Shown here: positions 1 to 23,303 of the stretch, piece after piece | Layout: each line of letters starts with the position of its first letter | Numbering within the stretch: the first letter of the stretch is position 1 | Assembly: GCA_046292445.1 (NCBI GenBank) | Contig: JBKBQT010000004.1 | Location: 19,206 to 83,205, forward strand | Length of the DNA: 64,000 nucleotides | Direction: 5' to 3' | From: Gemmobacter sp. | GTDB lineage: Bacteria > Pseudomonadota > Alphaproteobacteria > Rhodobacterales > Rhodobacteraceae | Position numbers and translations under genes: made by a program | Notes under the pieces: generated by a model | Told to the model about the DNA's origin: nothing | The model's input: the letters and a program-made list of their open reading frames with translations, nothing else | Databases searched by the model: none

Positions 1-4133
<4,133 letters not shown>

Positions 4134-4135
4134 AG

Positions 4136-4206
4136 CCAAGAATTTTCGCACGAAAATTCTTGGGCGACGAAGGTCGCGCGAAAAACCTTCGAACGAAGGT
4201 TTTTCG
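4136..4206. repeat. Bipartite palindromic hairpin element, copy 1 (a-hairpin 4136-4163, b-hairpin 4179-4206)
   Basis: 4136-4163 is CCAAGAATTTTCG-ca-CGAAAATTCTTGG (13-bp arms). 4179-4206 is CGAAAAACCTTCG-aa-CGAAGGTTTTTCG (13-bp arms). I checked both base by base. It starts 3 nt after the rpoB stop and shares its architecture with the copies at 38226-38301 and 60695-60765. Confidence 0.85.
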
Positions 4207-4250
4207 TCCCCCCGCCAAAACCGCCGCCACTTTTCGGACAGGATCAGGAC

Positions 4251-8495
<4,245 letters not shown>

Positions 8496-13747: not shown

Positions 13748-15019
13748 TTACAAAAGCAACTGCTCCAGCGAGAGGGCCATCACGGCGGCGCTGTCGAGCA
13801 TGTCCTGCACGCCCACCCATTCGTCGGGCTGGTGCGCAAGGTGCAGAAGGCCCGGGCCATAGGCGATGCAGTTCCTCAGCCGTCCGATCCGGTCGATATG
13901 CTTCTGGTCGTAGGTGCCGGGCGACACGACATAGTCGGCCTCGGTCCCCAGAACCGCGCGGATCGCCCCCGCCACCGTCCGCACCACCGGCGCCTCGCGG
14001 TCGGTCATCGTCGGCTGCACCTCGAAGAGATCGCGCACCGCGTAGTCGAAGGTCGGCCGCACAGCCTTGACCCGCTCCAGCAGCGCCGTCACCTCGCGCT
14101 TGACCTCGGCCAGATCCTCCTCGATCAGGAACCGCCGGTCGAGGATGATGCGGCAGCGGTCGGCGACGTTGGGCGCGGGAAGGCCGGTATAGCCCGGTTC
14201 GGGCTCCGGCTCGCCGCCGTGGATCGAGTTGATGTTGAGCGTCGATTGCCGCGCGCCTTCCGGCACCACCGGCATCGCGGTCGTCTTGCCGGCGAGGAGC
14301 GGGTAGAGCGCGGTTTCAATCTCGTGCAGCACCGCGCCCATGTGGCGGATCGCGCTGTCCCCGAGGAACGGCATCGACCCGTGGGCGATGCGGCCCTTCG
14401 TCTCGACCTCGGCCCACCAGACACCCCGGTGCCCGAGGCAGATGCGATCCTTGTGGAGGGGCTCGGGGATGATGACATGCTGCACGCGGCCCGGCGCGAA
14501 ATACCCCCGCTCGGCCATCCAGGCGACGCCGCCGTAGCCGCCCGATTCCTCGTCGGCGGTTGCGCTGATCTCGATCGCGCCGCGATAGCCGGGGTGGCAG
14601 GCGATGAACGCCTCGGCGGCGATGATGCTCGCGGCAAGGCCGCCCTTCATGTCGCAGGCGCCGCGGCCGTAGATCCGATCACCCTCGAGCGCGCCGCCGA
14701 ACGGATCGCGCGTCCAGCCGTGGCCGACCTCGACCACATCGTGGTGGCTGTTGAAATGCACGCAGTCGCCAGGCCCCGCGCCCTCGCGCCGCGCCAGAAG
14801 GTTCCAGCGCGGCCAGGCATCGCTGTCGCCCGGCGCGCCGACGGCGCGCAGGAATTCGACGGCGAACCCCTGCGGCGCCAGCCGGGCCGCCAGAAGTTCG
14901 CAGATGTCGCGGTAATGGCGCCCCGGCGGATTGAGCGTCGGAATGCGGATCAGGGCCTGGGTCAGCGCGATCAGGTCGTCGCGCCGGTCGGCGATGGCGG
15001 CGATAAGGCGGTCTGTCAT
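13748..15019 (-). CDS. M20 family metallopeptidase (ArgE/DapE/ACY1-like)
   Basis: About 423 aa from the ATG at 15019 (MTDRLIAAIADRRDDLIALTQALIRIPT). It carries metal-ligand contexts typical of M20 (HFNSHHDVV, GRGACDMKGG, ATADEESGG). Confidence 0.85.
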   Translation of the reverse strand: MTDRLIAAIADRRDDLIALTQALIRIPTLNPPGRHYRDICELLAARLAPQGFAVEFLRAVGAPGDSDAWPRWNLLARREGAGPGDCVHFNSHHDVVEVGHGWTRDPFGGALEGDRIYGRGACDMKGGLAASIIAAEAFIACHPGYRGAIEISATADEESGGYGGVAWMAERGYFAPGRVQHVIIPEPLHKDRICLGHRGVWWAEVETKGRIAHGSMPFLGDSAIRHMGAVLHEIETALYPLLAGKTTAMPVVPEGARQSTLNINSIHGGEPEPEPGYTGLPAPNVADRCRIILDRRFLIEEDLAEVKREVTALLERVKAVRPTFDYAVRDLFEVQPTMTDREAPVVRTVAGAIRAVLGTEADYVVSPGTYDQKHIDRIGRLRNCIAYGPGLLHLAHQPDEWVGVQDMLDSAAVMALSLEQLLL

Positions 15020-15046
15020 GGGCGCCACACTGCCCTGCCCCGATGC

Positions 15047-15074
15047 TTGCGTCCATGCCGAATTCCGCTATGAC
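15047..15074 (+). promoter_or_regulatory. Candidate sigma70-type promoter for the 15136 operon
   Basis: TTGCGT (15047-15052), 16-nt spacer, TATGAC (15069-15074), about 60 nt upstream of the ATG at 15136 (RBS GGAGGG at 15125-15130). Pattern match only. Confidence 0.25.
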
Positions 15075-15135
15075 GCTTGATGTAATCTGCCATAACATCC
15101 CCATCTGACGCGAAGATATTCCACCGGAGGGCAGC

Positions 15136-16212
15136 ATGGCCAATTTCGAGGCGCAGATCCGCAAGAGCGAGGCCGAGGTGACGGCCGCGCAGGCCAAGAT
15201 CACCGCGGTCACGGCGCAGGTCGAAGCCGCCCGCGCCCGGATCGACAGCGGCGAGCCCGAGATCGACATCGAAACCGCGACGCTTCAGGACGTGCATCAG
15301 CACACCGAACTGATGAACGCCAATATCGCGGAACTCATCATGGGCCTTGATGACGTGACGGCAGCGTTCTCGAAGGATTTCGACGCGATGCGGTCCAAGA
15401 CGGGGTGGGAATCCTTTGTCGGGGTCTTCAGCCGCGGCAAGTCCGAATCGCTCCGCCAGGAACGGCTGCGCACGGCGAGCATCGACGACAAGCTGCAGGA
15501 TCTCATTGCAAAGTCGGACGTGATCGTCCGCCTCTTGCAGGGGCAGCTCGAGCTTCTGAACCAGCAGAAGGCCAAGGTCGAGGCGAACCTCGGCGAAACG
15601 CTCGCCGAGCGCGAGGCGACCGTCGCCGCACTCGAGGCCGTGCGGGCCGAGGTCGCGGCGCTCGATCCGCAGATCATCGATCTGGAAAACCGCATCAGCG
15701 TCGAACAGGACGCTGCCGCGCGCACCCGGCTCGAGACCGAACTGGCCGCGATCAACGCCCGGCACAATGCGCTGGTGCAGGACGAACAGGTCAAGCTCGC
15801 CAAGTCCCAGACGCTCGAGCGCTACATCGAAAAGGGCAAGACCTGGGTGGACAGCCTGCAGAACCAGGCCGCGACCCAGATGGTGCTCATCAACAAGCTG
15901 CAGACGGACACCAAGCAGCGCGTGGTGCTCTACGATGCGCTGACCAAGTCGCTCAAGACCGCACAGCAGCAGGACGTGGCCCACCGGATCAACGAGATCG
16001 GCGTCAAGACGGACCAGGAGGCGCAGGCGGCCATGGCCGCCATCGGCACCGCGACGAACCAGCGGATGGCCGACATGCTCGAGGCGCACGAGGATCACAT
16101 GGTGTTCGCCCGCAAGGTTCTCGAGGCCAAAGCCAAGGCCGACGAGCGCTTTGCCCGCCGATTCGCCAAGATCGTCGAGAAACACGACAAGAACATCTAC
16201 GGGCAGGAATGA
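15136..16212 (+). CDS. Soluble coiled-coil protein, TelA-like (tentative)
   Basis: 358 aa, almost entirely heptad-like Ala/Glu/Gln/Lys/Leu sequence with no TM segment. The layout (GWESFVGVFSRGKSESL...SIDDKLQDLI...LLQGQLELL) resembles toxic-anion-resistance TelA proteins as I remember them. High GC3 in frame. The stop overlaps the next start (ATGA). Confidence 0.6.
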   Translation: MANFEAQIRKSEAEVTAAQAKITAVTAQVEAARARIDSGEPEIDIETATLQDVHQHTELMNANIAELIMGLDDVTAAFSKDFDAMRSKTGWESFVGVFSRGKSESLRQERLRTASIDDKLQDLIAKSDVIVRLLQGQLELLNQQKAKVEANLGETLAEREATVAALEAVRAEVAALDPQIIDLENRISVEQDAAARTRLETELAAINARHNALVQDEQVKLAKSQTLERYIEKGKTWVDSLQNQAATQMVLINKLQTDTKQRVVLYDALTKSLKTAQQQDVAHRINEIGVKTDQEAQAAMAAIGTATNQRMADMLEAHEDHMVFARKVLEAKAKADERFARRFAKIVEKHDKNIYGQE

Positions 16213-17330
16213 CCGCCCGGACCGTGCCGCAGGACCACGCGCCCATCCCCGATGCGCTGGTGGCGCGGCGCTATTTCGCCAAGTTCGACCGTATCGTGGG
16301 ATATCTGCCGCGCGTTGCGGCCGAACTGGAGGCCGACGGGCGGCTGACGCGGCCCGAGGTCCGCGCGACGGGGGGCTATGTCGAGGGCCTCGCGCGGACG
16401 TTCCGGGCGCTGTCGTTCAAGTACCTCATGACCGGCCGGCCCGGTGCGACCGGCAGCCTGACCTTCGACCGCCACGAAAGCGGCTTTCCGGTGGCGCAGG
16501 AACTGATGTTCATGGCCAACGATGCCGCGCAGGCCTACCGGCACCTGCACGGGATGCCGTCCGAGGACGAGATCAAGGATCGCATGATCCGCCAGATCGT
16601 GGGCGACCTGACCATACCGACGGCGCTGCAGTTCACGCTGTCGCAGCGGCTCTACTATACCGCGGTGACCGCAGGGGGCCTGTTCTGGGCCCGCAACGAC
16701 CCCGAGGCGCAATGGCTGTCGGAAACCGGCGGGCGGCGGCGCTGGTTGATCCACTGGGCGGTCTATGACAGCCTCGTGAACCTGCCGGTGGTCTACCTGC
16801 TCGAATGCGACGACAGCGGCCGCGAGCCCCTGCCCAAGGACGACCGCCGCTGGCCGCAGGTGCAGGCGCATCTGATGGCGCAGGCGATCAACGGGCTCAA
16901 GCTCCTGACGATCGCCACCGGTTTCGACAAGGATTTCGACGACCTCCACCCCCGGCGCCTGCGCCGGCTGCACCTCGGGCCGATGTATTCCTCGACCTTC
17001 ACGCTGCAATCGGGCCCGATCGGCGAGGTGCTGGCCGAGGCCGTGGCACCCGAGGGACAGGACTGGGCGCTGGTCTGGACGCTGGAGGAACTCGAGGCCT
17101 CGGGGGCAATGCGCGAACGCCAGGGCTGGTTCGGCACCGTGGAGCGGCAGCTTTTCGCGCTCGATCCCTTTTCGGGCCGGGGCGCGGAAACCGGCGCGAG
17201 CCGCACCGACCGCTATGTGATCCTGCCCGAGCGGCCGTATCAGGTCCTGGCCGAACGCGAGCCCCCGGGGTTCCGCAGCGTCGGGCGGTTCGTGGTCGGC
17301 GCGGGCGGGCGCGTGATGCGGGCGCGATGA
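16209..17330 (+). CDS. Hypothetical protein, no recognisable domain
   Basis: 373 aa from the ATG at 16209, which overlaps the upstream TGA (16210-16212). Amino-acid composition is coherent. The 15405 start in the track lies inside the preceding gene. Confidence 0.75.
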   Translation: MTARTVPQDHAPIPDALVARRYFAKFDRIVGYLPRVAAELEADGRLTRPEVRATGGYVEGLARTFRALSFKYLMTGRPGATGSLTFDRHESGFPVAQELMFMANDAAQAYRHLHGMPSEDEIKDRMIRQIVGDLTIPTALQFTLSQRLYYTAVTAGGLFWARNDPEAQWLSETGGRRRWLIHWAVYDSLVNLPVVYLLECDDSGREPLPKDDRRWPQVQAHLMAQAINGLKLLTIATGFDKDFDDLHPRRLRRLHLGPMYSSTFTLQSGPIGEVLAEAVAPEGQDWALVWTLEELEASGAMRERQGWFGTVERQLFALDPFSGRGAETGASRTDRYVILPERPYQVLAEREPPGFRSVGRFVVGAGGRVMRAR

Positions 17331-17435
17331 CGATGCGAGGGCGCCCGCGCCGAGCCGCCCCTGCCCCCGCCCCTCCCAGAAAGCGGGCGGGGCGTCATCC
17401 TACGCCGGCGCATCGCAGCACGGAAAGGTCGTCCC

Positions 17436-19406
17436 ATGCAGCCGCGTGACACCATGGAACTGCGCGAAGAGGATATTCGCGCCCACTACCCCGCCGCGCT
17501 GGCGCTGCTCGACGGGTTCGACCATGCCCCGCGTCTGGCCAGGCCGCGCGAGGCGGCGGCGGCACCGGCCGGCGAACGCTCGCCCGGCATTCCGGCCGCC
17601 CGGCCCCGGTTCCGCCCGACCACCCCCGGCCTCGTCACGCGGCCGGTGGAGCGTGCCGGGTCGGTCCGCCTTCTCGACCGCATCGGGGCCGTGGCCGAGG
17701 ACGGCCTGCCCACACCGCTCGCCGCCGCCACGGTCCAGACGCTGCGCCGGTCGCTGGCGATCGCGCTGGCGATGGGGGCGAGCTTTGCGGGCCAGATGGG
17801 GCTGGCCGAGCTCAAGAAGGCCAATCTCGAGAACCGCCTGCCCGATGCCCGGCGGGCCGAGTTCGCCGAATTGCTGGCGGCCGAGGCACTCGTCACGCTC
17901 CATGCCTTCGCCAATGCCGCCGCCTACCTCATCGCCCCGCATCTGACCGAGGCCACCGTGGACGTCGGCGGCGTGGAGGAGGTTCTGACCGACAACGCCC
18001 CCCTCGCCCTGCACGGCGCGCTGTGGGAGCTTGACCAGGACATCGCCGCCTTTGCCGCGGACGACGCCCGCCTTGCCGCCACGCTCGCGGCCTTTGCCGA
18101 GGGGCTGATGGCCAGGGCCGCCGCACGGGCCGAGGCCATGCCCCGCGCTGCCGCCTATGCGGCCGGCTCCTGGCGGATCGAAGCGGACGGGCTGACCCTC
18201 GCCGGCTTCACCCCCGCGCGCAAGGCGCGCGGCACGGCGCTGACGATGGCGTTCAAGAAGCCGACCGATGTGGTCGGCAACCACATCGCCAAGCATCAGG
18301 CGATGAAGCTTGCCAAGATGCTGATGGCCTATGACTTCACCCGCAGGCTCAACCCCTTTGCCGAACTGGGCGGGTTCATCTTCACCTTCATGGGCGACGG
18401 CGCGCCGGGCACCGGCAAGACGACGCTGATCCAGATGATGGCGGGGCTGATCCACGATTACTGCGCCGTGGCGGGCTATCCCTTCCGCTATGCCAATTTC
18501 TCGATCGACCAGATCGACAGCTATCAGGGCAAGTCGGGGCAGAACGCCAAGGCCTTCATCGACCAGATCCTCGACCCCGCCGTGATCGGCTTTGGCACCA
18601 TCGACGACATCGACCAGGTCGCGGGCAAGCGCGGCGACCGGCAATCCTCGGCGGGCCAGCAGGAGGTGACGGCGGTGTTCATGCAGGCCTTTGCCGGGGC
18701 CAATACCGTCGTGCGCGGCAACTGCACCTTCGGCATGTTCTCGAACTACCCCGAGAATGTGGACGACGCGCTGCGCCAGCGGGCCGCGGCGCGGTTCCTC
18801 GTGGACGGGCCGCAGAGCCGCGCCGACTACATCGACATCCTCGCGCTGCTTCTGGGGCGCAACCATGCGATCCCGCTGGGCGACCACACGCTGATGGCGG
18901 CACAGGAAATCCGCCGCGCCGTCGCGCAGAGCTACGAGGGGCACAACCGCCCGCAGGAGGCCGGGCTGGTCGCGGTCTGGCAGGCAGTCGAGGCGGCGGT
19001 CGGCCCGCTCGACACGCTGGCCAAGCTCGGCACCTACCTCAAGGCGATCCACGAGGCCGATCCGCGCTTCACCGGCCGCGCGATCAAGAACATCACCGAC
19101 GCGGTGAAGGTCCGCGCGATGGATGTGGAATTGCCCGACGCATGGATGGAAAACCCCGAGCTGTTCCTGTTCCAGCCCTACGACGCCAAGATGGCCATGC
19201 TGCGCGAGATGCTCGTGCCGATCACGCCGGCGATGGTCGTGCAGGAGATCAACCGCTATGCCGACTCCGAGTTCCGCTACGCCGACAATTCGGACGAGCG
19301 GGCGGTGGACGCGATGGTGCGCGAGATGGGCCGGGCAGAAGAGGCGCGGCGGCGGTATCAGGGGGGGCGGGCGGCAACGGGCGGTTTGCAGCGAGGTTCC
19401 CAATGA
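17436..19406 (+). CDS. AAA family ATPase (classical AAA module with about 290-aa N-terminal extension)
   Basis: Walker A GDGAPGTGKTT, Walker B VIGFGTIDDID, and sensor-1/second region of homology FSNYPENVDDALRQRAAARF. RBS GGAAAGG lies 8 nt upstream of the ATG at 17436. Confidence 0.85.
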   Translation: MQPRDTMELREEDIRAHYPAALALLDGFDHAPRLARPREAAAAPAGERSPGIPAARPRFRPTTPGLVTRPVERAGSVRLLDRIGAVAEDGLPTPLAAATVQTLRRSLAIALAMGASFAGQMGLAELKKANLENRLPDARRAEFAELLAAEALVTLHAFANAAAYLIAPHLTEATVDVGGVEEVLTDNAPLALHGALWELDQDIAAFAADDARLAATLAAFAEGLMARAAARAEAMPRAAAYAAGSWRIEADGLTLAGFTPARKARGTALTMAFKKPTDVVGNHIAKHQAMKLAKMLMAYDFTRRLNPFAELGGFIFTFMGDGAPGTGKTTLIQMMAGLIHDYCAVAGYPFRYANFSIDQIDSYQGKSGQNAKAFIDQILDPAVIGFGTIDDIDQVAGKRGDRQSSAGQQEVTAVFMQAFAGANTVVRGNCTFGMFSNYPENVDDALRQRAAARFLVDGPQSRADYIDILALLLGRNHAIPLGDHTLMAAQEIRRAVAQSYEGHNRPQEAGLVAVWQAVEAAVGPLDTLAKLGTYLKAIHEADPRFTGRAIKNITDAVKVRAMDVELPDAWMENPELFLFQPYDAKMAMLREMLVPITPAMVVQEINRYADSEFRYADNSDERAVDAMVREMGRAEEARRRYQGGRAATGGLQRGSQ

Positions 19407-20812
19407 CACCCCTCATCACCCGCGGCCTGATGTTCGGGAACCTGATCCCGGTCGAATCCCCCGCCCTTGTCGAGCGCTACAACCGCGCGCTCAAACACCT
19501 CACGGGGAAAACCACCGCCCTGCCCGACTTCCACATCGACATCTCGGGCTATTCGCCCGAGATCGGCGACGAGCTGGACGATACCCGCTACCTCAACCCC
19601 GATGGCGCCAACCGCAGGTTCATCCTGCTGACCACGGAACAGAAGCGCGCGCCGCTGCTCGAGGCGGATTTTTCCACCTCGCGCGGGATCCTGCGGCAGT
19701 TCATCGACGCCAACGAGGCGCAGCTTTTCGCGCTGACCGCCCGCGATGCGGTGGCGGGGGAGCTGTCGAATACCGTCTATGACCTCGGCACCCCCGCCCG
19801 CCTTTTCGACATCCGCCGCGTGACGGTCGAGGCGGACACGATCGGCGGGCATGTGGCCGATGCGGCGAAACTCGCGGCCCTGATCGAGCGGTTCCGCAAG
19901 GAACCCGACGGCTGGCGCGACGACGTGCTGATCGCCGAGATGATCGGCCTGGCGAAACGGACCGGCGATGTCACCCGCGTGCCGATCGCGCTGCCGCAGA
20001 TGACCTTCGAGCAGCCGAATTTCTGGACGAGCCATTTCGGCGGCCTCTACATCTTTCGCGGGGTGAAGTTTCCGGCGGCGATCACCGTGCGCCCGCGCGC
20101 CGAGATCGGCCGGCTGCCGGTGCCGCAGGTGATGGATCTGGACGACCGCAACGCCATTGCCGACTGGCTCGACCGCAACGCGCTGGTCGAGCCCATCGTC
20201 GTTGCCCGCGATCTCGACACCGCCGCCCTTCTGCGGCAGAAGCTCGACTTTGTCCTTGTCGCGGCGGCCGAGACACTCGGCGTGATGGACGCCAAGGCGA
20301 CGCGCGCCGACCTGCGCGGCATCGCCCGCAAGCTCGGCGCCGCGCTGCCCGAGGCCTTCAAGGGCCTGGCCGACCTTCTGCGCTGGGTCGAGACGGGCGG
20401 GGAATGGCCGCGCATCACATCCGAGCATCCGGCCTATTTCTACACGCTGCGCGCCGCGCGCGGACCGGACCGCGACCTTGTAAACCAGCTTCTGTCCGAA
20501 CTGTCGCCGCTGGACGTGCGGCAGATGTTCATCTGCCACAAGGCGCGGTTCTACCGCGACTATGCCGGATGGTCGGCGGCCAAGCGCGAATGGGTGGCCG
20601 AGTTCCTCGCCCGCGAATATGCGGTGGACAAGGCCGGGGCGCGTGCGGCACTCTTCGGACCAGAGCCGGGCATGGACGAGGCGCCGCGCCCGCCGCCCGC
20701 ACCGCCGCCGCGGGTCGATATCGTCGGGCCCTGGGGTGCTGTCGCGCGCGCGGCCGCGGCCCGGGCGGGGTCTGGCTCGGGCGATGACCGCAAGGGGAGA
20801 ACGCGCCGATGA
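19403..20812 (+). CDS. Hypothetical protein, no recognisable domain
   Basis: 469 aa from the ATG at 19403, overlapping the upstream TGA (19404-19406). Globular-looking body followed by a Pro/Ala/Arg-rich tail. I vaguely recall homologs annotated only as a DUF in Rhodobacterales. Confidence 0.75.
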   Translation: MTPLITRGLMFGNLIPVESPALVERYNRALKHLTGKTTALPDFHIDISGYSPEIGDELDDTRYLNPDGANRRFILLTTEQKRAPLLEADFSTSRGILRQFIDANEAQLFALTARDAVAGELSNTVYDLGTPARLFDIRRVTVEADTIGGHVADAAKLAALIERFRKEPDGWRDDVLIAEMIGLAKRTGDVTRVPIALPQMTFEQPNFWTSHFGGLYIFRGVKFPAAITVRPRAEIGRLPVPQVMDLDDRNAIADWLDRNALVEPIVVARDLDTAALLRQKLDFVLVAAAETLGVMDAKATRADLRGIARKLGAALPEAFKGLADLLRWVETGGEWPRITSEHPAYFYTLRAARGPDRDLVNQLLSELSPLDVRQMFICHKARFYRDYAGWSAAKREWVAEFLAREYAVDKAGARAALFGPEPGMDEAPRPPPAPPPRVDIVGPWGAVARAAAARAGSGSGDDRKGRTRR

Positions 20813-21075
20813 TCCCCCTGCTGCGCGGCCTTGTCTTCGCGCTTGCCGTGCTGACGGTGATTTATGTCGCGGTGTCGCTCTATTCCGCCTCGCTGCGCCG
20901 CGAGCGGCTCGAGAAACAGTGGGAGGCCGAGGGGCGCCCGGGCACACGCGACGATTATGTCGCGGCAGGCATGGCAATCTACCGCAAGTCCTTTCGCCGG
21001 CGCATGCTGATCCTCATCTATATCCTGCCGCTGAGCGGCATGGCGATTCTCGTCTATCTGCTGAACTACGCCTGA
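20809..21075 (+). CDS. Small membrane protein with two TM helices
   Basis: 88 aa. The ATG at 20809 overlaps the upstream TGA. Two hydrophobic helices (LLRGLVFALAVLTVIYVAVSLY and MLILIYILPLSGMAILVYLL) flank a charged loop. Confidence 0.6.
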   Translation: MIPLLRGLVFALAVLTVIYVAVSLYSASLRRERLEKQWEAEGRPGTRDDYVAAGMAIYRKSFRRRMLILIYILPLSGMAILVYLLNYA

Positions 21076-21087
21076 AGGGGGCCAAGC

Positions 21088-21768
21088 ATGCTGCGCTGGA
21101 TCAAGTGGACGGTGATCGCGGTGTTCGCCCTGCTCGTCGCTTCGGTGCTGCACTACACGCTGCCGCAGCGCGACATCGTGCGGATCGTGGGCGTGAACAC
21201 GCAGCGCATGGATCTGGGCGAGAATGCGTTCTTCTTTTCCGGCCCTGCGGTCGGCGCGGGCACCGCGGCAGACGGGACGCGCGACATCCTGTTCATCAAC
21301 ACGATCCGGCCGAACGGCCGCCCCATGGTCTATCGCAACGAGGATACCGGCTGGATCTGGCCGCCCTATTTCAAGATCAACAGCTTCAGCCTGCAGGCGC
21401 GGGCATCCGACCTGGTATCGACCGAGGCGAACCCGCGCTGGGTCGCGGTGACGCATTACGGCTGGCGAAACGAGTTCTTTACCATCTTCCCCAATGCGAT
21501 CCGGCTGACCGAGGTCGAGGGGCCGGATGTCACGCTCATCCCCTGGCTCAACATCGTGATCCTGACGCTGCTGGCAGTCGCTTCGCTGACGGTCTGGCGC
21601 ATGCTGGCGCAGTTCCGCGAACGCACGATCGACCCGCTGCTCGACGCGGCGGGGGATGCCATCGACCGCGGGCAGGCGCGGGCGGAGGCGGCGCGTCGCG
21701 AGGCGCGCACGATGCGCGGGCGGTTGATGGCCTGGCTCGACAGCTGGCGGGGCAAGCCGCGGCGGTGA
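21088..21768 (+). CDS. Membrane protein with N- and C-terminal TM helices (DUF1523-like, tentative)
   Basis: 226 aa, 12 nt after the preceding stop, with RBS GAAGGGGG. N-terminal anchor WIKWTVIAVFALLVASVL, a central soluble domain, a second TM LNIVILTLLAVASLTVW, and a basic tail. Confidence 0.6.
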   Translation: MLRWIKWTVIAVFALLVASVLHYTLPQRDIVRIVGVNTQRMDLGENAFFFSGPAVGAGTAADGTRDILFINTIRPNGRPMVYRNEDTGWIWPPYFKINSFSLQARASDLVSTEANPRWVAVTHYGWRNEFFTIFPNAIRLTEVEGPDVTLIPWLNIVILTLLAVASLTVWRMLAQFRERTIDPLLDAAGDAIDRGQARAEAARREARTMRGRLMAWLDSWRGKPRR

Positions 21769-21843
21769 TGCCGCGGCGCAGCATCAGGGCTTGACCAACC
21801 CGGCCCCCGCGGTAGGGTGCAGGCGATTCGAGCGGAGGCCCCC

Positions 21844-22089
21844 ATGACCCAGCGCCTGCACCTCGTCTTCGGCGGCGAGCTTGTGGACCCGTCGTCCACG
21901 ACCTTCCGCGACCCGGATGCGATCCATGTCGTGGGGATGTTCCCCGATTACGCCAGTGCCTACCGCGCCTGGAAGGCCGAGGCGCAGCGCACGGTGGACA
22001 ATGCCCACACGCGGTATTTCATCGCCCATATCCACCGCTTGCGCGACGAGGAGCAGCCGGCATCGGCAACCGAGGAGCTTGGCCGCTGA
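21844..22089 (+). CDS. Small conserved soluble protein (DUF4170-like, tentative)
   Basis: 81 aa from the ATG at 21844 (GGAGG 7 nt upstream): MTQRLHLVFGGELVDP... From memory, a protein of this type sits upstream of waaA in many alphaproteobacteria. Confidence 0.55.
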   Translation: MTQRLHLVFGGELVDPSSTTFRDPDAIHVVGMFPDYASAYRAWKAEAQRTVDNAHTRYFIAHIHRLRDEEQPASATEELGR

Positions 22090-22115
22090 GCCGACTGCCC
22101 CTGTCGCTCTATGCG

Positions 22116-23303
22116 ATGCGCGCACGGTCGCGCGCACGCCGGGCCGGCGTTGCAGACCTTCCGCTACAGCCGCCGCGGGCCGACGGGCCGGTGATCTGGC
22201 TCGACGCCGCCGATGCTGCCGCCGTGCCGCGCATCGCCGCCCTTGCGCGGCAGCTGCGGCGCGACCGGCCCCGGCTCACGGTGGTGCTGACCGGGCCGGG
22301 CCAGCCTTCGGCACAGGCAGGCGTGGTCATGCTCCCGCCGCTGGTCGATACGCCCGAGGTCAACGCCGCCTTCCTCGCGCATTGGCAACCGCTTGTTGCC
22401 GTGCTCGCCGGCGGGCCGGTGCGCCCCGCGCTGGCCGAGGCTGCCGCATCGGCGGCCGTGCCGCTGATCTGGCTCGAGGCGCCGGAACCCGAGATCGCAG
22501 GGGGCGGCCGCTGGCCGCGCCTGATGCGGCGCACGCTGTTGCGGATGCAGGCGATCCACAGTCGCGACGAGGCCGCGCTGGCCGCACTGCGGCGGGCCGG
22601 GGCGCCGACCGACCGGCTGGAACTGACCGGCCTGCTCGAGCTTCCGGCAACACCGCCCGCCGCGAACGAACCCGAACGCGCGGCACTGTCGCGCGCGATC
22701 GGGACGCGTCCGGTCTGGCTCGCCGCAGCGGTCACGCTGGCCGAACTCGACGCCGTCGCCGCGGCGCAGCTCGAGGCGATGCGATCGGCGCACCGGCTTT
22801 TGCTCATTGCCGTGCCCGAGCCGGTGACCGCTGCGGCGGCGCTCGCCGACCGGCTCCAGTCCGTGCATGGCCTGACCGTCGGCCGCCGGTCGGCCGAGGC
22901 CGAGATCGACGACGACCTGCAGGTCTATATCGCCGATACCGAGGGCGAATATGGCCTGTGGTATCGTCTGGCACCCGTCGCCTACCTCGGCGGAACGCTG
23001 ACCCCGACCGGCAGTCTCCGGCATCCGTTCGAGGCTGCGACGCTCGGGACGGCGATCATCCACGGCCCGGCCGGGGGCGAGGCGGCCGGGGTGTTGGACA
23101 TGCTGATACAGGCGCGCGCCACCCGCCCCATCGCCAGCGGCGCGGAACTGGGCACCGCGGTCGGCGACCTGCTCGCCCCCGACCGCGCGGCGCTGCTTGC
23201 GCAGGCGGGCTGGATGCAGGCGACGGCCGGGGCGGCGGCGACGGCGCGTGCAGTGCATGCCATCCTGCCGATCATCGACGCTGCGGCGGGCACGCGGCCG
23301 TGA
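22116..23303 (+). CDS. waaA: 3-deoxy-D-manno-octulosonic acid transferase homolog with degenerate catalytic motifs
   Basis: Collinear with E. coli WaaA, with scaffold matches such as DTEGEYGLWYRLAPVAYLGG versus GDTMGEL...FVGGS. The signature motifs are replaced (see findings). The true start may be an upstream non-ATG codon, since the frame is open back to about 22086 (LSRLPLSLYA). Confidence 0.7.
   Translation: MRARSRARRAGVADLPLQPPRADGPVIWLDAADAAAVPRIAALARQLRRDRPRLTVVLTGPGQPSAQAGVVMLPPLVDTPEVNAAFLAHWQPLVAVLAGGPVRPALAEAAASAAVPLIWLEAPEPEIAGGGRWPRLMRRTLLRMQAIHSRDEAALAALRRAGAPTDRLELTGLLELPATPPAANEPERAALSRAIGTRPVWLAAAVTLAELDAVAAAQLEAMRSAHRLLLIAVPEPVTAAAALADRLQSVHGLTVGRRSAEAEIDDDLQVYIADTEGEYGLWYRLAPVAYLGGTLTPTGSLRHPFEAATLGTAIIHGPAGGEAAGVLDMLIQARATRPIASGAELGTAVGDLLAPDRAALLAQAGWMQATAGAAATARAVHAILPIIDAAAGTRP

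Follow-up and report, generated by a model that had tools for sequence, protein, structure and literature searches.

Six adjacent, co-directional genes of a Gemmobacter sp. chromosome, designated here A to F, appear to form one functional module that is found across Alphaproteobacteria. The genes occupy positions 15136–21768 of a 64,000-nucleotide (nt) stretch of contig JBKBQT010000004.1 (hereinafter, the window) and encode, in this order, a coiled-coil-rich protein of an orphan family, a second orphan protein, an AAA ATPase, a DUF6638 protein, a small membrane hairpin and a DUF1523 protein. The module is delineated by its gene set, by the conservation of this set, by variant architectures in which the membrane partner is exchanged, and by the identity of the AAA ATPase. 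With regard to function, we tentatively favor, at clearly less than even confidence, an analogy with PspA or with ESCRT-III/Vps4, in which A would be an inner-membrane scaffold held through E and F and remodeled by a hexamer of C, with B and D as adaptors.

All six genes lie on the plus strand: A (15136–16212, 358 aa), B (16209–17330, 373 aa), C (17436–19406, 656 aa), D (19403–20812, 469 aa), E (20809–21075, 88 aa) and F (21088–21768, 226 aa). These coordinates agree with the initial annotation of the window, made from the sequence alone, which described five co-directional genes and a sixth after 12 nt; the ATGA stop/start overlaps that it listed at 16209–16212 (A/B), 19403–19406 (C/D) and 20809–20812 (D/E) follow from them, and the gap between B and C (17331–17435) indeed measures 105 nt in the sequence. 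All genes are taken from the open reading frame (ORF) table. In addition, A, B, C and E correspond to PGAP calls of a Gemmobacter sp. metagenome-assembled genome (MAG), MFN3642013-17, found by exact-sequence look-up and named either “hypothetical” or “ATP-binding protein”, and an NCBI entry of 469 aa named “DUF6638 family protein” matches D with 100% identity. The NCBI call for F in the same cluster, MFN3642018, has 225 aa; the 226-aa form was matched only in a Logan assembly. The six genes are genuine rather than chance ORFs because each has thousands of homologs (e.g., 3043 for D and 3058 for B) and because the gene order is kept in relatives.

Conservation and variants of the locus

A genome scan with D identified the locus in at least 573 species genomes, and the best 80 of these, all from Paracoccaceae, were compared by tblastn. 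The order A-B-C-D-E-F is present in every sufficiently long locus among these 80 genomes, with E directly followed by F in all 80. Identity to the window protein is the highest for A (77–88%), followed by C (70–82%), D (68–74%), B (59–71%), F (43–63%) and E (37–53%). A metagenome scan with mid-distance relatives of A added at least 554 further loci; for these later synteny counts, degenerate DNA motif searches with back-translated motifs were used. The back-translated P-loop of C is located 3–4 kb 3' of A wherever the contig allows, and two seeming exceptions proved on inspection to be A-B-C-D-E-F. The same order is found in marine metagenome loci in which A is 42–48% identical to the window protein. 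The cluster genes thus co-occur in related genomes.

Outside this set, several variant architectures are found. In Ahrensia marina, Devosiaceae, Hyphomicrobiales MAGs and Sinorhizobium meliloti, the order is A-B-C-D-DUF2333, where DUF2333 is the Hyphomicrobiales partner family in place of E and F. The S. meliloti locus reads tdk-A-B-C-DUF559-IS-D-DUF2333, with an insertion sequence (IS) next to the DUF559 gene; its A protein is 43% identical to that of the window, and in strain 1021, A, B and C are SMc02735, SMc02734 and SMc02733. A tblastn search of plasmid records with D retrieved matches from Sinorhizobium, Shinella and Rhizobium and from Vibrio megaplasmids of about 0.9 Mb. On the latter (e.g., L168, Vibrio parahaemolyticus NZ_CP062152.1, 141278–146827, and three similar replicons), A-B-C-D is followed by mfd; D is 25% identical to the window protein, and A and B are recognized by hhalign with the probability of 100% and 99.9%, respectively. 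The presence of this four-gene core on Vibrio megaplasmids implies lateral transfer outside Alphaproteobacteria. Conversely, the locus L082:4440-8353 encodes a distant A protein (28% identity), an 87-aa membrane ORF, a homolog of E and a DUF1523 protein (47% identical to F), followed by fliG, and contains no B-C-D. The occurrence of A-E-F without B-C-D ties A to the membrane pair. Wherever E and F or DUF2333 are present, they contain transmembrane (TM) segments and are encoded at the 3' end of the cluster. Taken together, the variant architectures indicate an A-B-C-D core with an interchangeable membrane partner, either E with DUF1523 or DUF2333. One of the plasmid records, PLSDB entry CP090106.1 (“S. 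meliloti plasmid pSymB”), is 3.7 Mb long and carries the chromosomal genes tdk, fhs, trpE, shmR and choX. It is probably a mislabeled chromosome, so that the “plasmid” matches from Sinorhizobium and Shinella are no sign of mobility.

The tight gene overlaps of the window cluster are not conserved in relatives, apart from the ATGA overlap of C and D, which is present also in L088. The gap between A and B is mostly near 30 nt or about 250–440 nt, that between B and C is 5–505 nt, and at the C/D junction the two genes are separated by anything from 3 bp to 2.9 kb. The inserts at this junction, an insertion hot spot, include arrays of repetitive extragenic palindrome (REP)-like repeats, unrelated small genes, an IS element and a recurrent DUF559 gene (L013, L061, L014 and S. 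meliloti). In view of this variability, the stoichiometric coupling that the initial annotation had read from the overlaps is not supported.

The DUF559 genes, with a Vsr-like endonuclease fold, are exemplified by L014:9243-10004, L061:9096-10004 and L167:6060-6464 (S. meliloti SMc02732). The VLRFWN motif was detected between C and D, just 5' of D, in 15 loci from Paracoccaceae as well as in two marine loci and in S. meliloti. The gene occurs in Rhodobacterales and Rhizobiaceae, always in the same orientation as the cluster, and is absent from the window; the REP-like repeats that often flank it read '...PLPTRGRGG.../...GEGWGGG...'. Two readings come into question, namely a selfish passenger that has a preferred landing site and a seventh component that is facultative; given the REP-like flanks and its absence in the window, it looks like a passenger. 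The 2.9-kb C/D spacer of L061 (7400–9700) contains many tandem or inverted copies of a repeat, from which spurious, mutually overlapping ORFs result on the two strands.

According to the supplementary tables of Schlueter et al. 2013 (PMC3616915), SMc02736–SMc02732 (tdk, A, B, C and DUF559) constitute one experimental RNA sequencing (RNA-seq) operon in S. meliloti. The single transcript proposed for the window cluster is therefore matched, for A-B-C, by co-transcription in this organism. The same tables end the operon at SMc02732, before D. This boundary, together with the C/D junctions of 3 bp to 2.9 kb that harbor unrelated genes, IS elements and REP arrays, would be compatible with two unrelated operons, A-B-C and D-E-F, that are incidentally adjacent and overlapping in the window genome. 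However, C is followed by D in all architectures and lineages examined, also in those of Hyphomicrobiales and Vibrio, in which E and F are replaced or absent; A is linked to E-F even in the locus that lacks B-C-D; and C and D share the ATGA overlap in the window and in L088. We therefore regard two separate operons as highly improbable.

Protein families of the module

The AAA motor of C is the sole recognizable part of the module, which implies ATP-driven remodeling of some target. In accord with the “classical AAA module” of the initial annotation, C matches PF00004 with 49.6 bits (cut-off 21.2; E-value 7e-13) over residues 322–455. It is a single-module ATPase of the classic clade, with an orphan N-domain of about 275 aa, the AAA core (about residues 280–470) and a conserved orphan C-terminal domain (about residues 530–625), and is 49% identical over the full length to the Hyphomicrobiales ortholog. 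The Walker A motif, GDGAPGTGKT, is intact. In 12 divergent orthologs from two orders, it is invariant, as are three further segments, namely YQG (SYQGKSG), SNYPENVDDALRQRAAARF (written also as SNYPENVDDALRQRA, which includes the arginines of ALRQR) and the lid-like FTGRAIKN. The first two of these are assigned to pore loop 1 and the second region of homology (SRH), respectively; both align to the equivalent segments of Yme1. A Walker A motif, an aromatic pore loop and the SRH arginines are hallmarks of substrate-threading classic AAA proteins. The Walker B motif of C, GTIDDID (residues about 386–392, window 18591–18611), has Asp where the catalytic Glu sits, and the resulting IDDID pattern suggests slow or regulated hydrolysis.

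A phmmer search of the PDB started with C identifies Yme1 as the best match (E-value 3e-6), followed by fidgetin-like 1, katanin, Vps4 and EccA1. Similarity to each of the subfamilies is weak (E-values of 1e-6 to 1e-2), so that C cannot be placed in any named one; with a profile of the 12 orthologs, nothing in the PDB is retrieved at E<=1e-3. At E<=10, Pfam matches neither the N-domain nor the C-terminal domain, and Vps4_C (PF09336) was not found at this threshold in five C-terminal domains. The label “Vps4/spastin-like”, which had been attached to C, is accordingly not upheld: no MIT, Vps4_C or lid-domain match is obtained. Neither a protease domain nor a TM anchor is present in C.

These features bear on an alternative in which C, together with B and D, would be an assembly or quality-control chaperone that matures, inserts or extracts an envelope or respiratory complex, in the manner of Bcs1, Msp1 or ATPases of the FtsH or CbbX type; A would then be an adaptor or holdase instead of a polymer, and E and F would provide a membrane docking site. 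The best solved relative of the AAA module, at an E-value of 3e-6, is indeed a membrane-protein quality-control protease (Yme1), the module is housekeeping-like (single-copy, syntenic and strongly conserved), its membrane partners are encoded at the 3' end of the cluster, and the conserved Walker B Asp-Asp suits a specialized, regulated ATPase. On the other hand, no candidate client gene is kept nearby, the flanks being different in Gemmobacter, Ahrensia, S. meliloti and Vibrio; a protease domain and a TM anchor are both missing from C; and the extreme conservation of A, along with the locus that contains only A-E-F, argues that A is more than an adaptor of C. On balance, a chaperone role appears unlikely.

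The A protein is all-helical, coiled-coil-rich and cytoplasmic, and belongs to an orphan family. It is the best-conserved protein of the cluster, with 77–88% identity across Paracoccaceae genera as compared with 59–82% for the other three core proteins (B, C and D); coiled coils are not usually conserved to this degree. The C-terminal half is nearly invariant, and there is a C-terminal motif, AD(E)xFxRRF (ADxxFxRRF in distant relatives); F339, in the C-terminal helix, is one of only 11 positions in the family that are conserved at 90% or more. An exhaustive phmmer search started with A identifies 284 relatives of about 350 aa, with identity down to 25% and motifs in common, none of which is assigned to a Pfam family. 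Neither A nor B or E has a significant match in Pfam, NCBIfam or PHROGs, and no ATPase motif was detected in A in the Pfam and NCBIfam scans. In a sequence-profile search against the PDB, A hits only generic coiled coils (keratin, tropomyosin and ZapB-type).

The resemblance of A to TelA or PspA that was initially noted by eye did not hold up, given that TelA, PspA_IM30 and Snf7 produce no match at E<=10 in 29 orthologs. The hidden Markov models (HMMs) of TelA, PspA and Snf7 likewise retrieve none of 10 distant relatives of A at E<=0.1. Membership in TelA (PF05816) was rejected because neither the window protein (E<=0.1) nor the orthologs match the HMM, and membership in PspA was rejected after hhalign aligned a 41-sequence profile of A to E. 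coli PspA with the probability of 0.6%. The Snf7 and PspA HMMs detect no similarity in A, B, D, E or F.

For B, the initial annotation could name no motif; the family scans are negative, with no Pfam domain among the 3058 homologs, and Foldseek finds no PDB neighbor. The family is nevertheless traceable over long distances: the Hyphomicrobiales ortholog is 29% identical (E-value 4e-24), and the Vibrio protein is aligned by hhalign with the probability of 99.9%. The AlphaFold2 model of B (pLDDT 85.8, pTM 0.86) consists of an N-terminal five-helix bundle (residues 16–155) and, C-terminal to it, a region (162–372) in which helices are packed with a long antiparallel beta-sheet. A Foldseek search of the PDB with this model yields a gasdermin pore as the best match, with an E-value of 0.11 and the probability of 0.03, which is not significant; there is no credible structural neighbor in the PDB or among the BFVD viral models. 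A similarity to maturation proteins of single-stranded RNA phages (BFVD, E-value 4e-4) was dismissed as noise, with a TM-score of about 0.1.

The D protein, for which no motif had been named either, turns out to be a full-length member of DUF6638 (PF20343; 701 bits, E-value 7e-211, profile positions 1–439 of 439). It is cytoplasmic, with a Pro/Ala/Arg-rich tail, and is 32% identical to the Hyphomicrobiales ortholog. The AlphaFold2 model of D has a pLDDT of 65.7 and is confident only for about residues 200–410; the best Foldseek match in the PDB has an E-value of 0.7, so that there is no neighbor, and sequence-profile searches against the PDB give no match for B or D. The most conserved stretch of DUF6638, residues 61–150 of D (window 19583–19850), reads YLNP.G.NR.FILLT..Q...PLL...FSTSRG...QF...N..QLFALTARDAVAGEL. 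This stretch is at the same time the least confident part of the model (pLDDT 32–48), and may fold only within a complex.

The E protein is a hairpin of two hydrophobic helices flanking a basic loop of about 40 aa; the two-TM topology proposed initially agrees with this pattern, as seen in the sequence. Judged by the positive-inside rule, E is probably inserted in the inner membrane with the loop facing the cytoplasm. The F protein is a member of DUF1523 (PF07509; 241.8 bits, E-value 4e-72, profile positions 1–176 of 176) and has two predicted TM helices, the first of them N-terminal. The domain of about 130 aa that separates these helices is probably periplasmic, whereas the C-terminal tail, which is basic and helical, is probably cytoplasmic.

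Comparison with known systems and a possible mechanism

With FtsH/Yme1 and with the “meiotic” group of Vps4, katanin, spastin and fidgetin, C shares the P-loop, the pore-loop aromatic residue, the SRH arginines and a lid-like helix (FTGRAIKN), as well as the classic AAA layout of a private N-domain, an AAA module and a C-terminal extension. Unlike the named AAA groups, it has no MIT domain, protease domain, TM segment or Vps4_C domain, its N-domain (about 275 aa) and C-terminal domain (about 120 aa) are orphans, and the Walker B pair, DE in classic AAA proteins, is DD in all C orthologs. The relationship to the PspA-PspB-PspC and LiaH-LiaI systems, which are assigned to the ESCRT-III superfamily, is one of analogy only, in that a soluble helical protein stands beside small inner-membrane proteins and an AAA-type ATPase. 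PspA is about 220 aa long, compared with 358 aa for A, and A falls outside PspA/IM30 and Snf7; PspB and PspC do not correspond to E or F; and PspF is an NtrC-type enhancer-binding protein, whereas C is a classic AAA protein. TelA (PF05816) proteins, which are associated with toxic-anion resistance and envelope stress, are similar to A in length (about 360–400 aa), all-helical and devoid of TM segments, but their HMM is not matched by A. In the membrane-scission machinery of ESCRT-III/Vps4 (CdvB/CdvC), too, a helical protein is paired with an AAA ATPase of the classic clade, but nothing in it corresponds to B, D, E or F; no MIT domain is detected in C, and A has no Snf7 match. The MIT-interacting motif MIM1 follows the pattern (D/E)xxLxxRLxxL(K/R), which the C-terminal helix of A, D-E-R-F-A-R-R-F-A-x-I, appears to resemble. 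A survey of phage shock protein (PSP) partners lists no such gene context (PMC11237479), and a survey of ESCRT systems reports them in archaea and eukaryotes but not in bacteria (PMC11188069).

At the level of sequence families, A and B are uncatalogued, D, F and DUF2333 are catalogued only as DUFs, and only the family of C is a known one. D and F are full-length members of DUF6638 and DUF1523, and these families, like DUF2333, carry no function. In the literature, no paper on DUF6638 (PF20343) was found, DUF1523 and DUF2333 receive only incidental mentions, the S. meliloti locus tags of the cluster appear in one main text only, and no description was found of a linkage of DUF6638, DUF1523 or DUF2333 with A, B and C. 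The statement of the initial annotation that no characterized system has this composition is borne out, the DUF6638 literature, PADLOC and the PSP and ESCRT surveys all being blank. In our assessment, the module falls outside all kinds of system described so far, although a remote structural link, above all for A, may exist.

The PADLOC and phage comparisons, as well as certain gene contexts, bear on the alternative of a conflict system (anti-phage, abortive infection or addiction), in which sensing or activation would fall to the AAA protein, and the small membrane proteins or B would be effectors that disrupt membranes. The Hyphomicrobiales-type locus L083 is found among DpdA, Eco57I and DotM_C genes, A-D are carried by Vibrio megaplasmids, a gene with the DUF559 endonuclease fold recurs within the cluster, the TRIP13 model of PADLOC matches C weakly (1.5e-5), and the top, non-significant Foldseek match of B is a gasdermin pore (E-value 0.11, probability 0.03). 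However, at least 573 of the species genomes in GTDB contain the locus, and in the best 80 loci the order is fixed and identity is about 60–88%, whereas defense islands are patchy and fast-evolving. No system of PADLOC-DB 2.0 is matched; B, D, E and F have no match at all, A shows only weak ones (LmuB and NsnC, E-values of about 3e-3), and the TRIP13 match of C, which covers the AAA module, reflects generic AAA similarity (the IetA models follow with E-values of 4e-3 and 0.03). Phage matches, by PHROG and tblastn, are likewise limited to generic AAA similarity of C. None of A-F contains a nuclease, protease, NADase or other effector domain, and the DUF559 gene, flanked by REP-like repeats and absent from the window, resembles a passenger. 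A conflict system is therefore improbable.

The reading that we favor, tentatively as stated above, is a role in membrane or envelope maintenance, as an analog of PspA-PspBC or ESCRT-III/Vps4 assembled from unrelated folds. The A-E-F and DUF2333 variants would place the activity at the inner membrane. We infer that A would assemble into a higher-order helical scaffold on the cytoplasmic face of this membrane; it is the combination of the highest conservation with a near-invariant C-terminal half that suggests a constrained assembly. Recruitment of A to the membrane would be due to the loop that E exposes to the cytoplasm, together with the C-terminal tail of F, and the periplasmic domain of F might report on the state of the envelope. 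A hexamer of C would bind A, or a client bound to A, through its private N-domain and thread the substrate through the Tyr-bearing pore loop, with disassembly, recycling or extraction as the outcome, and B and D could be adaptor or regulatory subunits. The more specific proposal of a novel remodeling or repair machine of the ESCRT-III/Vps4 or PspA kind, in which A would be a polymer, C would disassemble it via the MIM-like helix, B and the DUF6638 protein, two new folds, would act as nucleator and adaptor, and the TM proteins would be interchangeable sensors that link the machine with the periplasm, appears rather doubtful.

Several observations weigh against membrane remodeling. The likeness to membrane-remodeling modules, to which the initial annotation had pointed, is a reasonable lead by analogy, but there is no homology to remodeling families: for A and C, the TelA, PspA, Snf7 and MIT comparisons are all negative, and MIT in particular gives no match at E<=10 in five N-domains of C from divergent orthologs. 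As read from the sequence, A has no obvious amphipathic, membrane-binding N-terminus. The Walker B Asp is invariant in 12 of 12 orthologs of C from two orders, and the replacement of Glu by Asp implies that C may be a slow ATPase or a switch and not a processive unfoldase. Strict co-expression is not required, as kilobase-size C/D insertions are tolerated, and the Vibrio copy has no adjacent membrane partner. Finally, the cluster genes are not listed in two S. meliloti transposon sequencing supplements, and no phenotype or localization of these genes was found in the literature.

Whichever mechanism applies, about 1,900 strongly conserved residues (the whole of A, B, D and F, and C outside its AAA module) are without known function, and this set is encoded at this locus in at least 573 species genomes as well as in Rhizobiaceae. 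Alphaproteobacteria are the lineage that gave rise to mitochondria. If the analogy with PspA or ESCRT-III/Vps4 is true, AAA-driven membrane maintenance would have been invented independently in the sister lineage of mitochondria; if it is false, there are still three new protein families, one of them with a confidently predicted fold that has no significant PDB neighbor. The system is tractable, with orthologs in S. meliloti 1021 (SMc02735-33, with D and DUF2333 just downstream) and in the marine Rhodobacterales of the metagenome loci.

Promoter of gene A and flanking genes

A palindrome, GATGTAATCTGCCATAACATC (15079–15099, plus strand; consensus GATGTAA-N7-TTACATC), is located 37 nt upstream of the ATG of A. 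It is flanked by the -35-like CTTGAT (15076–15081) and the -10-like CCCCATCT (15099–15106) and is unique in the window at 1 mismatch, with 0.04 occurrences expected by chance. In 24 related loci, the exact form ATGTAA-N7-TTACAT has a single occurrence, which is always 5' of A, and the distance to A is 30–70 nt in the window and the related loci (e.g., L013:2743-2761 and L056:4892-4910). The palindrome looks like the operator of a dedicated regulator, and this conserved candidate operator offers a handle on the regulator itself. The promoter that the initial annotation placed upstream of A is thus only partly recovered, as a simple sigma-70 consensus scan finds none but the conserved palindrome comes with a -10-like element. 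A sigma-32 promoter, to the consensus of which CTTGAT-N17-CCCCATCT would conform, is not claimed, the -35 element not being conserved in relatives and the promoter of the S. meliloti ortholog being sigma-70-like. The CtrA box is TTAA-N7-TTAA. The spacing of the palindrome does not appear to match that of sites for CtrA, PpsR, CRP/FNR/NtcA or NsrR.

A dedicated candidate operator at the promoter of A would be compatible also with a cytoskeletal or cell-cycle scaffold, in which A would form a filament like crescentin, DivIVA or PopZ, involved in division, polar growth or chromosome organization, and C would be responsible for its turnover. The helical, coiled-coil-rich nature of A, its PDB matches to keratin, tropomyosin and ZapB-type proteins, the JGI label “chromosome segregation ATPase”, and the very high conservation and core-genome status of A point in the same direction. 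The JGI name, however, is a generic coiled-coil/COG artefact, as A has no ATPase motif; the palindrome is not the CtrA box; and partners with a periplasmic domain, as well as copies on Vibrio megaplasmids, fit a core cell-cycle role poorly. In the tables of PMC3616915, no CtrA motif is listed for SMc02735. A scaffold of this kind is, in our judgment, distinctly unlikely.

The promoter tables in the supplement of the same study (PMC3616915) give, for the A ortholog of S. meliloti, the sigma-70-like sequence CTTGTC-N19-TTATAT, and four transcription start sites are recorded there before this gene in strain 1021. With respect to the inferred link of the membrane-maintenance role to envelope stress, one observation from this organism is relevant. 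ChvI is the response regulator of an envelope-stress two-component system. A genomic gel-shift screen identified a ChvI-bound fragment of the S. meliloti 1021 chromosome, 2587012–2587177, inside SMc02733, the C ortholog (PMC3687685). The fragment is intragenic, and the connection to the envelope that it suggests is weak.

The window as a whole is an ordinary high-G+C chromosome, with rpoB and rpoC in its upstream part (66–8495). Genes for a peptide-binding protein and an M20 peptidase are located 5' of the cluster, on the opposite strand, and on the 3' side (21817–23303) there are genes for a DUF4170 protein and for a waaA-type Kdo-transferase. The M20 peptidase gene is found in about one third of the 80 related loci, and the DUF4170 and waaA neighbors in none of the 80; the DUF4170/waaA neighborhood downstream of the cluster is a local rearrangement. 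The core-genome context with envelope genes that had been described for the cluster hence stands with respect to the chromosomal location and the actual presence of waaA here, but not as a general association, waaA adjoining the cluster in 0 of 80 relatives.

Within the cluster, the spacer between B and C (17331–17435, plus strand) is G+C-rich and contains no recognized element; its RNA fold is no better than that of shuffled sequences (z -0.31), and there is no Rfam match. Six terminator-like matches were found, all within coding sequence; this number hardly exceeds the shuffle mean of 3.1. Long ORFs of 389–669 aa are present on the minus strand opposite A, C and D (15016–16185, 17400–19409 and 19358–20977); these are the usual artefact of high G+C content and not genes.

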